Program-made: the position numbers and the translations under genes
Notes under the pieces: generated by a model
The model's database searches: none
Told to the model about the DNA's origin: nothing
The model's input: the letters and a program-made list of their open reading frames with translations, nothing else
DNA from: Minisyncoccota bacterium
GTDB taxonomy: Bacteria > Patescibacteriota > Minisyncoccia > Phycocordibacterales > UBA918
NCBI GenBank assembly: GCA_021734905.1
Contig: JAIPIB010000003.1
Location: forward strand, 1,334 to 65,333
Direction of reading: 5' to 3'
DNA: 64,000 nucleotides
In this document: positions 58,706-64,000 of the stretch, piece by piece
How positions within the stretch are numbered: the first letter of the stretch is position 1
Layout: each line of letters opens with the position of its first letter

Positions 58706-59596
58706 ATGAGCAAGTCAAAAGTATTAGTTATAGTAGGACCTACAGCATCGGGGAAGACTTCCCTTTCTATATCTCTCGCCAAAAAATTTGACGGTGAGAT
58801 TACTTCTGCTGACTCACGACAAGTTTATAAGGGGCTTGATATAGGAACTGGCAAGGTTACTAAGGGTGAAATGGAGGGTGTTCCACATCATCTTCTTGAT
58901 GTAGTATGCCCTGAAGAAACCTATACCGTCGCGGACTTCGTCCGCGACGGTCGAAATGCCATTACTGACATACACTCTCGTGGGAGACTTCCCATAATTG
59001 TCGGTGGAACATTTTTTTATGTTGATGCTCTTTTGGGTAAAATTGTTACACCAGAAGTTCCACCAAATCAAAAACTGCGAGCTGAGCTAGAGGATTGCTC
59101 GAATGAAGATCTTTTTTTAAGATTACAAGAAAAAGATCCTAAGCGGTCAAAAAACATTGACCAGCACAACGGCCGGAGACTCATCCGTGCACTTGAGATC
59201 GTGGATTCGCTAGGCTCTGTCCCAAAGATCCATGTTGAAGAACTTTATGATGTGCTCACGCTTGGTATCGCGATTAATCGCGATACCCTCAAAGAAAATA
59301 TCCACACTCGTCTTGCTGACCGATTAAAAACAGGAATGCTTGAGGAAGTTACTGAGCTACATAAGGCAGGACTTTCATACGAAAGACTTTCAGAGCTTGG
59401 AATTGAATATCAATACCTCAGTAAATTTATACAAGGAAATATTTCAGAAGATGAAATGCGACAACAAATTGAAACAAAAAGTTGGCAATACGCAAAACGT
59501 CAAATGATGTGGCTAAAGCGAGACAAGACGATACAATGGGTGAAATTGGATGAATTGGAAAAAATTGATACGTTAGTAAATAAATTTTTAAGATAG
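58706..59596 (+). CDS. miaA: tRNA dimethylallyltransferase
   Basis: P-loop VLVIVGPTASGKTSLSISLA then DSRQVYKGLDIGT. The ORF-track start at 58559 is an upstream in-frame extension; Met at 58706 is the likely start. Confidence 0.85.
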   Translation: MSKSKVLVIVGPTASGKTSLSISLAKKFDGEITSADSRQVYKGLDIGTGKVTKGEMEGVPHHLLDVVCPEETYTVADFVRDGRNAITDIHSRGRLPIIVGGTFFYVDALLGKIVTPEVPPNQKLRAELEDCSNEDLFLRLQEKDPKRSKNIDQHNGRRLIRALEIVDSLGSVPKIHVEELYDVLTLGIAINRDTLKENIHTRLADRLKTGMLEEVTELHKAGLSYERLSELGIEYQYLSKFIQGNISEDEMRQQIETKSWQYAKRQMMWLKRDKTIQWVKLDELEKIDTLVNKFLR

Positions 59597-59710
59597 ATGT
59601 TTTTTTAATACACTCTACGTCACGAGTTGCTAAACAAATTGCTTCGCAAACCTGTAATTTGTTAAGCACTCTCGACCCCGACTCGCTTGCCTACCGGCAT
59701 CGCTTCGTCT

Positions 59711-59772
59711 CCCGCAGAGGTAAAAGAAAAAGAGCATGCAAATGCATGCTCTTTTTCTTTTACCTCTGCGGG
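59711..59772. terminator. 62-nt perfect palindrome (29-bp arms) abutting and overlapping the 3' end of tRNA-Trp; bidirectional terminator candidate between miaA and tRNA-Trp
   Basis: CCCGCAGAGGTAAAAGAAAAAGAGCATGC-AAAT-GCATGCTCTTTTTCTTTTACCTCTGCGGG; last 4 nt overlap the tRNA acceptor 3' end. Confidence 0.7.
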
Positions 59773-59839
59773 CCCACGTGGAATCGAACCACGGCCACTG
59801 GTTTTGGAGACCAGCATTCTACCTCTAAACTATAGGCCC
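59769..59839 (-). tRNA. tRNA-Trp (anticodon CCA)
   Basis: minus-strand cloverleaf: acceptor GGGCCTA/TGGGCCC, anticodon stem CTGGT/ACCAG with loop CTCCAAA, T-arm CGTGG-TTCGATT-CCACG, discriminator G. Confidence 0.8.
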
Positions 59840-59889
59840 AGACGTCAACCATAGTACGGGAAACGGATACTATGGTCAACGGAAGACTC

Positions 59890-60744
59890 CTAGCTCCTTA
59901 CCAGAACATCCCAATGATCTCCCTCTTGCGCATAAATAGTTCCATCAGGCGCTGTATACATAGTGGCTCCGTCACTCCTAACTCCAGAATTTTTATAGTT
60001 TGTGATTATATATGTATTAAGCTTTGGGTTCATGCGAGCATCATATTTATACCCATTTCCATGACTTGTTGCTCCTGCGGCATGACCACCTGTGGACTCT
60101 GTTCCTCCGGTAATTGTTACATCACAATTACAATCTCTTTTAAGGTCAATTGCATCTTTAATAGTGGCGTCTCTTATCCCTTGAAGTGACGTACATCCTG
60201 ACGTTCCACTGCAATCAGCTTGTACTTTTCCTCCTGAACTAGTGACCGAAACATTTGCTGCTGTAAGACGATTGACAGCGTCATCTTGTGACAATCCACC
60301 TCCCTTTCCGACTGAAGCAACAGAGGGGGCTTGTGAAGACTGAGATGTTGCACTTGGAATTCCTGGTACACATTGAATTTCATTCCAAGGACCAAGGAGA
60401 GCTCCTTCGTTAAGGAGAAGTTTGAGTGCAGTATCAACGATAAGGTATCCAGAGAGAAGAATAACAAAACCAACCACTGAATTCGTCATCGTCGTACGCG
60501 CCTGAGATATTGCTTCAGTTGAACCACCAGACATAACCATTTTCATCCCTCCGAACGCAAACATGAGTGCGATAATGGTCGCCATAATTCCAATAAACCA
60601 TGAAATGAGTTTTTGTCCGAGCTCAACAAAATCACACGCTTGACAATCTGGACCATCACAAGGAACAATCCCTTCTCCAGCAAACGTCAACGCAGGAACT
60701 GATATAAGTAGTGCAAGAAAGACTACGAGTAAGGTGCGTTTCAT
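59890..60744 (-). CDS. fusion of Patescibacteria-type T4SS pilin-like (TrbC/VirB2-like) domain with C-terminal LAS-type (M15-like) zinc peptidase-like domain
   Basis: signal peptide, IVPCDGPDCQACDFVELGQKLISWFIGIMATIIALMFAFGGMKMVMSGG + second TM (pilin-like pattern); C-terminus TSHGNGYKYD (SxHxxGxAxD-like) and EGDHWD (ExxH-like). Start taken at MKRTLLVV (GGTGAG RBS); ORF-track 5' extension to 60990 rejected. Confidence 0.55.
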   Translation of the reverse strand: MKRTLLVVFLALLISVPALTFAGEGIVPCDGPDCQACDFVELGQKLISWFIGIMATIIALMFAFGGMKMVMSGGSTEAISQARTTMTNSVVGFVILLSGYLIVDTALKLLLNEGALLGPWNEIQCVPGIPSATSQSSQAPSVASVGKGGGLSQDDAVNRLTAANVSVTSSGGKVQADCSGTSGCTSLQGIRDATIKDAIDLKRDCNCDVTITGGTESTGGHAAGATSHGNGYKYDARMNPKLNTYIITNYKNSGVRSDGATMYTAPDGTIYAQEGDHWDVLVRS

Positions 60745-60836
60745 ACTCACCATCTTATCATGTTCCTTTGTAACACTTTTACTAAACAGTGAATTGTGGT
60801 ACTTTATAACCTGTCTCTCGGGACATTCAGATACAT

Positions 60837-60893
60837 GCGTCGGTGGCAGAGTGAGAAAGTCTGGTAGACTTTCGCAAGAGGTTGTCGATATTT
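60837..60893 (+). other. 17-nt exact copy of the tRNA-Tyr 5' end followed by a hairpin and conserved AAGAGGTTGTCGATATTT, ~140 nt upstream of tRNA-Tyr
   Basis: GCGTCGGTGGCAGAGTG identical to tRNA-Tyr positions 1-17; hairpin GAAAGTCT-GGT-AGACTTTC (60855-60873); motif shared with the tRNA-Leu upstream element. Confidence 0.7.
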
Positions 60894-60993
60894 CGTTGAG
60901 AAATATCATACAATCTGAACAGCGCCTGTAAGGCGGTAACGAAGTCAAATGCCTGTTATAATCAAAGCGTCTTTGATGACAGGTCAACATAAT

Positions 60994-61076
60994 GCGTCGG
61001 TGGCAGAGTGGTCAATTGCAGGAGACTGTAAATCTCCCGGATTTATCCTACGCAGGTTCAAATCCTGCCCGGCGCA
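60994..61076 (+). tRNA. tRNA-Tyr (anticodon GTA), type II
   Basis: acceptor GCGTCGG/CCGGCGC, anticodon stem GGAGA/TCTCC with loop CTGTAAA, long variable arm, T-arm GCAGG-TTCAAAT-CCTGC, discriminator A. Confidence 0.85.
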
Positions 61077-61085
61077 CATTTTAAG

Positions 61086-61106
61086 GCACCCCATTTGGGT
61101 GCTTTT
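61086..61106 (+). terminator. stem-loop plus T-run immediately after tRNA-Tyr
   Basis: GCACCC-CATTT-GGGTGC-TTTT. Confidence 0.5.
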
Positions 61107-61226
61107 AAAATGTGTGACAGGAGGAAGACACTCAATGTGTCTTCCGTCAGGATTTGAAAAGGTTGCCAGCGATTTTGAAGAATGAAAAATCGTGGCAACC
61201 TGTACCGGTCATGTAATGACCAAAAT

Positions 61227-61242
61227 TCCTGCCCGGCGCACA
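61227..61242 (+). repeat. 16-nt direct repeat of the tRNA-Tyr 3' end (att-like)
   Basis: TCCTGCCCGGCGCACA occurs at 61063-61078 (tRNA 3' end) and again at 61227-61242; the intervening ~150 nt contains three hairpins. Confidence 0.8.
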
Positions 61243-61246
61243 AAAC

Positions 61247-61276
61247 TTGACAATACGCCATTTTCAGTGCAATATA
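61247..61276 (+). promoter_or_regulatory. sigma70-like promoter for the 77-aa ORF
   Basis: TTGACA-N17-CAATAT(A) immediately after the att-like repeat; strong GAGGAG RBS before the ATG at 61314. Confidence 0.5.
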
Positions 61277-61313
61277 TTTTTAGTTAGCCCTTATCACAAC
61301 CTGAGGAGATATA

Positions 61314-61547
61314 ATGAATACTGCCACTGAGGAACTGTTCCAGATGGACACTTTGCAAGCAAAGCTCATGCAAGAATCCATGCGGGATCTTCAAATCACA
61401 AGTGGTGATGTTGGAAAGGTATTTGTCTTGAGAAACGGAGAGCAGGCCGGTGAGATAATTACTCGCGAATCTTTCGCCACCATCCCCGTCTTCGAAATAC
61501 ATGCGTGGGTTGTAGTCAGCGAATTTGACATTAATACGTTGGACTAA
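61314..61547 (+). CDS. small hypothetical protein (77 aa)
   Basis: good promoter, GAGGAG RBS, and strong downstream terminator. Confidence 0.5.
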   Translation: MNTATEELFQMDTLQAKLMQESMRDLQITSGDVGKVFVLRNGEQAGEIITRESFATIPVFEIHAWVVVSEFDINTLD

Positions 61548-61569
61548 ACCGCTGTAACCAGGTCAACCA

Positions 61570-61629
61570 AGCTCCAGCGGGGAAAACAACCACAGTTGTC
61601 TTCCCCGCTGGAGCTGTTTTCTTTTTCTG
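61570..61629 (+). terminator. long rho-independent terminator
   Basis: AGCTCCAGCGGGGAA...TTCCCCGCTGGAGCT (15-bp stem with inner ACAAC/GTTGT) followed by GTTTTCTTTTTCT. Confidence 0.7.
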
Positions 61630-61859
61630 ATATAAAAAAGGCCAGCGGGATTGCTGGCCATTGGTATGGTTACCAAACTTCGGTAAACCTTTTAATTTTT
61701 TAGGTTTTCTGGGTCCTTCACATGAAACTCGTTCTGATCGCCGCCTTTTTAATCGTCATCCAAAGATGAAGCAGAGCGAACTCCTGGGCGTCGATAATAA
61801 TTTTTGTACTCAACTCTGAATCCTAGTGTAGAAACTAGATACAAAAGTTTGAGATTCTT

Positions 61860-62426
61860 TCACAGATACTTTAGTCGAAGTCCTTCATTTTTTAAGTCAC
61901 ACAATGAATCGTATATGTCATGCATTACAACCCGCAACATCCGAAAATGTGTAAAGTTGTGTGCCACACACCCGTCTGCAATGAAGTTGTGCTCACCCTG
62001 TGTATACAGGTTAAACACTGGTTCAGTTGTTCCGGTTGGCGCAATACTCTTGATACAAGAATGTGCCGCTTTTGACGAACTGATGCGCATGATGCTGTCA
62101 CCTGGACTGAGCTTTTTAATCGACTGATATCCTTTATCAGTCATAAAGCTATGGCCCAAAGTACAGATCATTCCAACATCATCTGATTCAAAAGTTACAT
62201 TGACCAGTGGTGCTGGTTCGTGAACCAACTTGCGAGTGATTCGTCTTGGGACCAAAATGCCCTTTTTGTATGACAGAACCATTTCCCCTTCGGACAAATC
62301 TCCGATAGGAATTTTGCCACTCGGTGTTTCTATAAGTGTAGACTTGGGGAAACAATCCCAAGAATATTCAATACCTCTGGTACCTGCGCCTGGCAAATCA
62401 TTATCTACGTCAGAGTGCTTACCCAT
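61860..62426 (-). CDS. free-standing Hint/mini-intein-like (bacterial intein-like) domain protein
   Basis: block A CFPKSTLIETPSGKIPIGDL after a 24-aa leader; block B TLGHSFMT; blocks F/G EPVFNLYTQGEHNFIADGCVAHN; 31-aa tail after the HN beginning with Phe, not Cys/Ser/Thr. Confidence 0.7.
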   Translation of the reverse strand: MGKHSDVDNDLPGAGTRGIEYSWDCFPKSTLIETPSGKIPIGDLSEGEMVLSYKKGILVPRRITRKLVHEPAPLVNVTFESDDVGMICTLGHSFMTDKGYQSIKKLSPGDSIMRISSSKAAHSCIKSIAPTGTTEPVFNLYTQGEHNFIADGCVAHNFTHFRMLRVVMHDIYDSLCDLKNEGLRLKYL

Positions 62427-62652
62427 GATTGTTTCCTTTCAAAGAACAGTCTAGACCGTTTTATGAAGCCGGTCAAAACGCTTCACGATGAAACAGAAAC
62501 ATTTCTATCTCACCGATAGTTTGACAATACCACTTTTTACTGTTTTGTCAAAATACTATCAGCTCATTTTATTAAAAATATATTGTAGAAATTCAGTGTA
62601 TTTTCTTTCTATATAAATCTAATCTATCGGTCAAGATCGATCTTCAACCAAC

Positions 62653-63825
62653 CTACTCTGCAACGTTACCATCAATTACTTCAGGAACATTTTTAGTCGT
62701 TGTTGGCATATCAAATTTACCATCACTATCCAAAATAATATTGTAGTGACGTTGAAATTTAATATCTGAATGTTGTATTTCATCAGACAAAGATGGGTCA
62801 CTTATTATACCAAGTGCACCAGATAATGTTATTGCGACAATCCATACAACTCCCAGACTAAGTGCTTTTATTGCAGTGAAAAGATTTCTTCCAGCAAGAA
62901 GGCTTCCTCCAGCTACAATGAGAACAATCAACGGGATCAACGCAGAAACAATGACCGCACATAAAAAGACATATCCAAACGGATCCGATAATATGATATG
63001 CGATACTTCTTTGATACTTGGATCAGTCCATCTACTATCAGCCATCCATAACATACTCGAAGTAACTACGAGCCCAGCCAGACTGATGGCCCCAACAAGC
63101 ACCAAGGCAAATCCAACGACATACCTAATGACCACGGCCAATGTACGGACGACAACACCAAGAAGATTGAAAATCTTCGTAAGGACTGGATAAATGCCTC
63201 CCCATGTATTTTTAACTCCAGCTTTCAAATTATTAGTATCAACCTCATCTACCTTTTTTTTTACTCGCTCAGTAATCTCCTTAAGAGTCATTTTTTCACC
63301 ACGCATTGCATATTTCTGTGTTGTTGTTTCTGCAGCAGGAACAACAAGCCAAAGAATAATATATGCAAGAATACCGAACCCACTAATGAATACTGAAAAG
63401 ATAAAGATGAGTCGGACAATGACCGGATCAATTTCAAAATATCGGGCGACTCCAGAAGCGACTCCAGCAACAACAACATCATCAGTATCACGGTAAAGAC
63501 GTTTCTTTGTGTCAGTTGTATTTAACTGTACACTTTCGTTACGTGAACCAGCATTTTCTCCTTCTTCATCAAAATCGTTGGGGCTACCCATTTCTGCAGT
63601 TACTTGCATGACATCACTACTCGTTACAGCACTTTTCTCACTACGCTTTCGTGCAGTAAATTTCTCAGCAATTGCACCCTCCATATCTTCAACAATTTCA
63701 CTAAGATCATTAGTTCTTGCTAGTTTTTGTCTAATAGCTTCAAGATATATCGAGAGAGTGTCAAACGCGTCTTGCTCTATTGCAAAGACAGAATTTCCAA
63801 GTGTTATATTAATTACTTTTTTCAT
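62653..63825 (-). CDS. PspC-domain membrane protein
   Basis: YRDTDDVVVAGVASGVARYFEIDPVIVRLIFIFSVFISGFGILAYIILWLVVP PspC domain, then several TM segments. Confidence 0.75.
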   Translation of the reverse strand: MKKVINITLGNSVFAIEQDAFDTLSIYLEAIRQKLARTNDLSEIVEDMEGAIAEKFTARKRSEKSAVTSSDVMQVTAEMGSPNDFDEEGENAGSRNESVQLNTTDTKKRLYRDTDDVVVAGVASGVARYFEIDPVIVRLIFIFSVFISGFGILAYIILWLVVPAAETTTQKYAMRGEKMTLKEITERVKKKVDEVDTNNLKAGVKNTWGGIYPVLTKIFNLLGVVVRTLAVVIRYVVGFALVLVGAISLAGLVVTSSMLWMADSRWTDPSIKEVSHIILSDPFGYVFLCAVIVSALIPLIVLIVAGGSLLAGRNLFTAIKALSLGVVWIVAITLSGALGIISDPSLSDEIQHSDIKFQRHYNIILDSDGKFDMPTTTKNVPEVIDGNVAE

Positions 63826-64000
63826 AATGTTTTATTAAGGTGTTAACAGATGTGTCGAGTGTTTTCCATGAATCCCCAAGTGTTGATAATACTAAATGTC
63901 CTTCTTTTGTTATGACGTACATTTTTCGTGGAGGTCCACTCTTACTTTCTTCCCACGAATACGAGACCAACCCATATCGTCTTAACCTAGAAAGTAATGG
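63809..64000 (-). CDS. PadR-family transcriptional regulator, C-terminal part only (5' end beyond window edge)
   Basis: manual minus-strand translation gives ...LSRLRRYGLVSYSWEESKSGPPRKMYVITKEGHLVLSTLGDSWKTLDTSVNTLIKHYEKSN*, matching the PadR wing/helix consensus; stop overlaps the PspC-gene start by ~17 nt. Confidence 0.65.
   Translation of the reverse strand, partial: PLLSRLRRYGLVSYSWEESKSGPPRKMYVITKEGHLVLSTLGDSWKTLDTSVNTLIKHYEKSN

Follow-up and report, generated by a model that had tools for sequence, protein, structure and literature searches.

The window analysed here is a 64-kb stretch (64,000 nucleotides) of contig JAIPIB010000003.1 from a Minisyncoccota bacterium, and towards its end the minus strand carries a complete gene for a 188-aa protein built on a Hint domain. 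A first-pass annotation had described this open reading frame (ORF) as carrying a 24-aa leader, an N-terminal Cys, a TxxH block B and a terminal Asn, all of which are present as described. The analysis confirms an intact, free-standing Hint/mini-intein domain protein, and sequence comparison indicates, beyond what had been noticed before, that it is no isolated oddity but one member of a large family. We think it fairly probable that this family, widespread and apparently undescribed, consists of cytoplasmic, single-turnover autoprocessing cassettes, in which a Hint core and a basic tail docked on it follow a variable N-terminal cargo. The gene and its parts are the following.

61860 to 62426, minus strand: complete gene of the free-standing 188-aa Hint protein, from the ORF list (stop codon at 61860-61862)
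62355 to 62426, minus strand: leader, residues 1-24, MGKHSDVDNDLPGAGTRGIEYSWD, acidic and predicted to be disordered
61956 to 62354, minus strand: minimal Hint core, residues 25-157 (133 aa), with Cys25 in block A, T89-x-x-H92 in block B, N139 and H146 in block F, and H156-N157 in block G
61863 to 61955, minus strand: tail, residues 158-188, FTHFRMLRVVMHDIYDSLCDLKNEGLRLKYL, with Phe at +1, a predicted helix whose first ~17 residues form the family motif

The codons of Cys25, Asn157 and Phe158 were confirmed by hand reading of the window sequence. An identical protein (P0001), retrieved by the homology search, is annotated in a Candidatus Pacebacteria metagenome-assembled genome (MAG), and the MGKHSD N-terminus at the start of the protein is seen again in homologues. 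The gene is single-copy within the window. No minus-strand ORF of at least 40 aa flanks it on either side in the window ORF list, and the translated flanks contain stop codons, which agrees with the absence of an extein remnant of a disrupted host gene. The earlier statement that the domain is not inserted in any recognisable host protein is thus borne out, the flanks not being the two halves of a known gene.

Searches by profile, by PDB sequence and by fold agree that the core is a Hint/mini-intein domain. As expected for such a domain, similarity to Hint hidden Markov models (HMMs) is found: Pfam Hint_2 matches at 30.0 against a gathering cut-off of 28.4, over residues 25-67 only, NCBIfam intein_Cterm matches at 19.2 against a cut-off of 15.6 and recognises block G, and Pfam Intein_splicing matches the C-terminal blocks. 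Pfam Hint (PF01079) has a cut-off of 29.7 that is not reached, the window protein scoring 13.8 bits and relatives no more than 27.6 bits. The protein has the horseshoe-like beta structure of the Hint fold, a match that does not discriminate between Hint classes. Among PDB sequences it matches the DnaB, DnaX and RecA mini-inteins and the Tetrahymena BIL2 domain (BIL, bacterial intein-like); the family profile scores about 48 bits against the mini-inteins, 47 bits against Tetrahymena BIL2 and 35.5 bits against the C. thermocellum BIL domain 2lwy, and reaches no Hedgehog Hint sequence at E<=0.01. In the alignment with the NpuDnaB intein, the counterpart of Asn139 is the Asp of VFDL. No solved PDB chain aligns beyond the His-Asn pair (profile position 174), so that the tail has no solved counterpart.

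Size, spread and conservation of the family

A first homology search returned 29 close homologues of 177-252 aa, all free-standing, and 1.84 billion cluster representatives, searched exhaustively with a profile, yielded 363 at E<=1e-30. The residue counts given throughout refer to the 146 single-Hint representatives among 173 proteins, that is, the top 150 of the profile search together with the earlier close homologues. The family comprises at least 146 clusters at 50% identity, and all 146 single-Hint members examined share one common architecture. The sources named include MAGs of Pacebacteria, Minisyncoccia, Saccharibacteria, Myxococcales and Thermoanaerobaculia, hence both the candidate phyla radiation (CPR) and lineages outside it, and the GC content of the family loci runs from 33% to 60%. 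No Pfam or NCBIfam model defining the family or covering its tail was found, nor was any literature on Hint domains in CPR bacteria or on this tail, and the family could still be described elsewhere.

Across the family the core measures 124-141 aa and begins with Cys-Phe-Pro. The block A Cys (Cys1) is present in 143 of 143 members, the block B Thr (T89) in 140/146 and His (H92) in 144/146, and block G shows His (H156) in 145/146 and Asn (N157) in 142/146. In block F, where inteins usually have Asp, 142 of the 146 carry Asn (N139). Residue -1, immediately before the Cys, is Gly, Ser or Ala in 110/143, and this preference for a small residue fits a genuine scissile site.

Outside the family, the closest relatives are long proteins in which 3-5 Hint cores stand in tandem (P0030, P0034, P0040 and some 24 more). 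The cores of P0030 and P0034 follow each other in an odd arrangement, separated by tiny linkers with 3-residue spacers (HN|KGG|CF), and a transmembrane (TM) segment and a Tim44-like domain are encoded 3' of the Hint array; P0030 opens with a signal peptide, and the sequence of P0034 lacks its N-terminus. These tandem-Hint relatives have no tail, the tail HMM giving -1 bit for P0040.

The conserved C-terminal tail

The first-pass annotation had regarded the flanks of the domain as short and non-canonical, which is correct for their size but does not hold if they are taken as arbitrary, the tail being conserved like the catalytic residues. Its motif reads F-[TS]-x-[FL]-R-x-L-R-T-x-x-H-R-L-F-x-D-P; as a rule some 15 residues remain from there to the end of the protein. 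Residue +1 is Phe in 145/146 members and Tyr in 1/146; further along, R+5 is found in 130/146, R+8 in 145/146, H+12 in 126/145 and the Asp in 125/131. The information at F+1, at R+8 and at the Asp near +16/+17 (D173 here) equals that of the catalytic residues. The tail of the window protein scores 26.9 bits against the tail HMM. Tails carry a net positive charge in 128/140 members, and only one is TM-like.

Core and tail positions covary, as measured over the 146 sequences by mutual information with average-product correction, a score that ignores phylogeny. Residue 93, which adjoins the catalytic His92, pairs with tail position +2 at z 7.6, ranking second in strength among all pairs of the protein, and five other core-tail pairs (93/+5, 91/+3, 64/+12, 141/+15 and 151/+14) lie at z 3.4-5.4. 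The tail is modelled as a helix spanning residues 162-187, whose predicted local distance difference test score (pLDDT) rises from 64-70 to 72-82 with a deeper alignment, and F+1, R+5, R+8 and H+12 share one face of this helix. Covariation and model together suggest that the tail is docked on the Hint core, near block B and the block-F strand. The hydrophobic moment of the tails is not above that of shuffled sequences (mean z 0.43); hence, with the conserved residues on one face and an unremarkable moment, a specific interface is likelier than a generic membrane-binding helix. The tail was also considered as a strongly amphipathic membrane helix, an idea dropped because the moment lies within the shuffle range.

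Variable leaders and a portable cassette

What precedes the core is as diverse as the tail is uniform. The N-terminal flanks measure 16-344 aa, and sorting 136 leaders by similarity gives 79 unrelated groups, of which 62 are singletons. Recurring classes are acidic leaders of the MGKHSDGC type, zinc ribbons (CKTC...CPHCGQP), DnaJ-like CxxCxGxG fingers and basic leaders with a His run, and the long cargos carry SAM/TPR or M91-like peptidase domains. The window leader (pLDDT ~50, net charge -3) resembles the acidic MGKHSD-type leaders of CPR homologues; no signal peptide was found in it, and neither flank of the window protein (24 and 31 aa) has a Pfam match. Since 136 of 140 leaders have no hydrophobic segment, the family proteins are predicted to be cytoplasmic. 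Leaders that are unrelated while Hint and tail are conserved represent the reverse of an intein lodged in a conserved host.

When 5.8 billion proteins were searched with a profile of the spliced product, in which the leader runs directly into the tail, no Hint-less allele came up; the search had low power, full-length members not being recovered on the tail alone, and its sole match is a contig-edge fragment that still bears Hint blocks F and G. In the class with M91-like cargo, the spliced-form search gave two Hint-less homologues, P0183 and P0184, whose likeness to the Hint-bearing proteins stops exactly at the start of the Hint domain and is followed by an unrelated region of ~250 aa. The tail HMM gives -2.4 bits for these two versus 24-39 bits for the Hint-bearing proteins. 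A Hint-less cargo that is also tail-less implies that the tail belongs to the Hint domain and not to the cargo, hence that Hint and tail form one portable cassette. With this the analysis establishes the modularity of the cassette and the lack of a host gene, in addition to the identity of the domain, its fold and its conservation pattern.

The M91-like cargo forms a two-gene unit (locus L028, 5235-7146; locus L029, 5428-7368), the upstream gene encoding a protein of ~190 aa with 48% identity between the two loci. This partner accompanies the M91-like cargo with or without Hint. P0183 and P0184, which lack the Hint, keep an intact HExxH motif (HELAH), and the Hint-bearing P0130, P0124, P0167 and P0181 have a degraded one.

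Proposed mechanism

The chemistry of the cassette, which like its biological output we infer throughout, would run as follows. Cys25, aided by Thr89 and His92 of block B, would perform an N-to-S acyl shift that turns the Asp24-Cys25 bond into a thioester, and Asn157, aided by His156, would cyclise to a succinimide and so break the Asn157-Phe158 bond. Two outcomes could be envisaged. In the first, which is cleavage, the leader would be freed by hydrolysis or by transfer of the thioester to another nucleophile, and the tail would be freed or left docked. In the second, the new alpha-amino group of Phe158 would attack the thioester, and the leader would be joined to the tail. Through its docking, the tail would keep the C-terminal junction, and subsequently the free Phe amine, beside the active site; holding this amine close to the thioester would offer a rationale for the conservation of the tail. 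Given that +1 is Phe, which provides no nucleophile, a branched intermediate cannot form and canonical splicing is impossible, in line with the first-pass annotation, which had judged it unlikely for the same reason; the autoprocessing of BIL or Hedgehog type that it proposed instead likewise appears to be the natural reading of a free-standing Hint domain with Phe at +1. A route through a thioester, Asn cyclisation and aminolysis without a side-chain nucleophile has been proposed for A-type BIL domains (PMC4031507).

Several points weigh against such an autoprocessing cassette. Its catalytic competence is deduced from the conservation of residues only, and the block-F Asp is replaced by Asn in nearly all members (142/146). 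The window protein itself has Asp at -1 instead of the family-typical Gly or Ser. Concerning the docked tail, its pLDDT is only moderate and the covariation score is not phylogeny-corrected; moreover, four members with Ser in place of the terminal Asn still retain the tail start, so that tail release would not be its universal purpose. Finally, genomic context and neighbours at 14 loci give no conserved partner gene.

Alternative explanations

One alternative is a transfer of the Hedgehog/Hog kind, in which the tail, in the manner of the sterol- or adduct-recognition region of Hog domains, would recruit a nucleophile (a lipid, a small molecule or a protein amine) onto the Cys25 thioester and the cargo would leave with a C-terminal adduct, amounting to self-catalysed lipidation or E1-independent tagging. 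We regard this as unlikely. By layout, the Hog domain is indeed the closest known system, with its variable N-terminal cargo, Hint domain and accessory C-terminal region (PMC2362128). Several observations speak against transfer: Pfam Hint stays below its cut-off of 29.7 and no Hedgehog Hint is reached by the family profile at E<=0.01; the tail, with ~17 conserved residues and a hydrophobic moment of z 0.43, is far shorter than the sterol recognition region (SRR) and has no detectable similarity to it or to the adduct recognition region (ARR); and neither a signal peptide nor a lipid-related neighbour gene was found. In addition, the family keeps a nearly invariant intein-type His-Asn at the end of its core, which to our knowledge the Hedgehog Hint module lacks. 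It is correspondingly doubtful that the cassette is a prokaryotic counterpart of the Hog domain, converting any fused cargo into a C-terminal thioester that passes, guided by the docked basic tail, to a specific acceptor (a lipid, a metabolite or a protein amine).

It also seems improbable that the main product is the C-terminal peptide, as the first-pass annotation had envisaged in suggesting release of the 31 C-terminal residues. Here Asn cyclisation would free a basic tail of about 31 aa, either bioactive (a membrane or nucleic-acid effector) or short-lived (through a Phe N-degron), in analogy to toxin release by PT-HINT domains. The near-invariance of His-Asn and the net positive charge of most tails fit this idea, as does a +1 residue that is only ever Phe or Tyr, both primary destabilising N-terminal residues in bacteria. 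Several members also score above the Pfam PT-HINT cut-off, and PT-HINT sits just before the module that it frees (PMC3482391). However, the tail covaries with the core and appears docked, so that, self-cleavage being itself a prediction, it may not be a simply freed peptide, and its start persists in the Ser-for-Asn members. An N-degron would accept Leu, Trp and Tyr too, yet Phe occupies +1 in 145/146. Nor was an immunity-like or partner gene found beside the family genes, the hydrophobic moment lies within that of shuffles with a single tail being TM-like, and the invariant Cys1 would be left unexplained.

The data speak strongly against the two explanations that remain. A true mini-intein or its decaying remnant, with leader and tail as halves of a small host gene, is very unlikely. 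Such an origin would account for the full set of splicing blocks, for the DnaB, DnaX and RecA mini-inteins as the best sequence matches and for the position of the gene near tRNA genes and a repeat of the tRNA-Tyr 3' end. On the other hand, +1 is Phe in 145/146 and not Cys, Ser or Thr, the N-terminal flanks are unrelated while Hint and tail are conserved, and no homing endonuclease was found. The spliced-product profile, with its low power, gave no Hint-less allele, and the Hint-less homologues of one cargo class have no tail. An intact reading frame, a syntenic position in related genomes and a single copy in the window characterise the gene, which is not enclosed in the 146-bp interval of the tRNA repeat and stands in a region of unremarkable GC; viral contigs carry only ordinary inteins that lack the tail. 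That the cassette is a catalytically silent scaffold, a binding module that keeps its active-site residues for structural reasons, is hardly credible either, for although the Asn at the block-F position in 142/146 and the predictive nature of self-cleavage would allow it, the joint near-invariance of Cys1, block-B Thr/His and His-Asn is hard to explain without chemistry and the small -1 residue fits a real scissile site.

Relation to known Hint systems

On profile scores, the family is as far from mini-inteins as from Tetrahymena BIL2, and farther from the solved A-type BIL. Judged by the active site, the closest known kind are the A-type BIL domains, reportedly described by Amitai et al. in 2003 and Dassa et al. 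in 2004. These are defined by a C-terminal His-Asn without a +1 nucleophile (PMC4031507, PMC7765530), the very signature that is found here. In the present family only the N-terminal flank is hypervariable, the C-terminal one being a conserved motif of ~17 residues with an essentially invariant Phe at +1 that covaries with the core, and a conserved C-terminal flank is not described in reviews of A-type BILs. The BIL-containing proteins so far described are large and often secreted, whereas those of this family are small, predicted to be cytoplasmic and usually hold little beyond the cassette. With the family profile, 2lwy reaches 35.5 bits, less than the ~48 bits of mini-inteins. From B-type BILs (Pfam Hint_2) the family differs in that His-Asn, and thus block G, is present, and Hint_2 matches residues 25-67 only; of the two BIL types with which the protein had been compared, the A type is the closer by its active site and the B type does not apply.

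With class 1 mini-inteins (NpuDnaB, Spl DnaX, Mtu RecA) the family shares the block G His-Asn, and differs by its Phe at +1, the lack of a conserved host and of an intein-less allele, the block-F Asn and the conserved tail. It should be noted that the block-F Asp is usual in inteins, but not universal (PMC7765530).

PT-HINT domains (PF07591) are found just before a variable C-terminal toxin, in secreted proteins with trafficking domains and immunity genes (PMC3482391). Both they and the present cassettes are predicted self-cleaving modules, and the PF07591 cut-off is exceeded by 8/28 close members and by most relatives with long cargo, while the window protein gives no match to it. Here, however, the variable part is N-terminal and the C-terminal part is a conserved 30-aa tail, and the family has no toxin domain, trafficking domain or secretion signal, nor any conserved neighbour gene at 14 loci.

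The BIL domains of ciliate BUBL loci occur with ubiquitin-like domains in eukaryotic polyproteins. Their representative, Tetrahymena BIL2 (PDB 6tmm/6y75), is as similar to the family as the mini-inteins are (47 bits), and both are Hint domains with short non-host flanks that are predicted to process small N-terminal modules, but the BIL domains of BUBL loci have no counterpart of the conserved tail.

Expression signals and genomic setting

The signals that could serve expression of the Hint gene are listed below; the count of promoter-like sites near the gene is not above shuffle expectation.

62432 to 62438, minus strand: Shine-Dalgarno-like AAGGAAA, read from the sequence, ending 5 nt 5' of the ATG, with its AGGA core 7 nt 5'
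62524 to 62551, minus strand: weak candidate sigma-70-type promoter, TTGACA, 16 nt, TATTGT, with TG (10/12 matches)
61640 to 61659, minus strand: intrinsic-terminator-like hairpin and T-run, a 7-bp stem with 6 GC pairs followed by TTTTTTATAT, ~200 nt 3' of the stop codon

Clustering of the ORFs within ~6 kb of the gene at 14 independent loci revealed no recurring neighbour, apart from the synteny of close genome pairs. Related genomes of one lineage keep the order YceG - Hint - RNase T - MnmA, and this retained synteny marks the Hint gene as a stable chromosomal gene. In the window, the gene has a PspC protein and a PadR fragment on its upstream side, and tRNA-Tyr is found at 60994-61077, its 3' end being repeated over 19 nt at 61224-61242 (18/19 matches), 146 bp downstream. 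The setting between a tRNA-Tyr repeat and a PadR-PspC pair, to which the first-pass annotation had drawn attention, is hence real, but it is not conserved at other family loci, and with no neighbour recurring it is incidental and probably unrelated to the gene. Upstream of tRNA-Tyr, a 36-nt stretch at 60835-60870 is 78% identical to its 5' half, and the partial copies may have been left behind by an integration or excision long ago. The two copies of the 3'-end repeat enclose ~146 bp, with the Hint gene outside, and local GC around the gene is unremarkable. No family member was found on viral contigs, which carry only ordinary inteins of 26-30% identity without the tail. An origin from a mobile element or phage was accordingly rejected, on the grounds of the viral contigs, the local GC and the repeat interval that excludes the gene. 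PADLOC gave no defence-system match, and an Rfam scan of 59000-64000 found nothing beyond the two tRNAs.

Other features of this part of the window deserve a brief description. A plus-strand ORF of 77 aa at 61314-61547, without a Pfam match but probably a genuine small gene, converges on the Hint gene; after it, at 61570-61615, come a hairpin whose 21-bp stem is 95% complementary and a T-rich run. Between tRNA-Trp (59768-59839, minus strand) and tRNA-Tyr, the minus strand encodes at 59890-60990 a protein resembling type IV secretion system pilins (Pfam T4SS_pilin, 28.2 bits, cut-off 26.6), with a weak NCBIfam match to the Mbov_0395-type pilin-like conjugal transfer protein and a long Ser/Gly/Thr-rich C-terminal extension. 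The ORF is probably overextended in the list, a start near 60750 (MVSMKRTLLVV...) being more likely. At 59711-59772, an inverted repeat of 30 nt, perfect and with a loop of 2 nt but unusually long for a terminator hairpin, overlaps the 3' end of tRNA-Trp by 5 nt.

At one other family locus (L001, 7843-10456), that of P0007 from a Minisyncoccia MAG, the Hint gene stands beside genes for an N6/N4 DNA methyltransferase and a DndB-domain protein. This neighbourhood resembles a defence island and was not seen at other family loci.

Significance

Hint domains underlie protein splicing, cholesterol attachment to Hedgehog and toxin release, and are major tools of protein engineering. To these the family would bring, as a fourth arrangement in bacteria, a cytoplasmic and portable Hint cassette that has its own conserved and apparently docked C-terminal segment with the invariant Phe at +1 and that would process N-terminal cargo of unrelated kinds. 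Current understanding stays unchanged unless the biochemistry of the cassette is shown. If the predicted cleavage is true, the cassette would be a natural system for nucleophile-free ligation or thioester transfer and a compact 165-aa candidate for a self-cleaving tag, and it would bear on the origin of modules that combine, like Hog, a Hint domain with an accessory region. If the Hog-like reading, which we hold unlikely, were the true one, it would mean enzyme-independent lipidation or tagging in bacteria, ultra-small CPR cells included, and the members with short leaders would yield a small, often Cys-rich, C-terminally modified peptide. For the organisms themselves, the family represents a conserved gene in reduced CPR genomes, where the genes that are retained are likely to matter.

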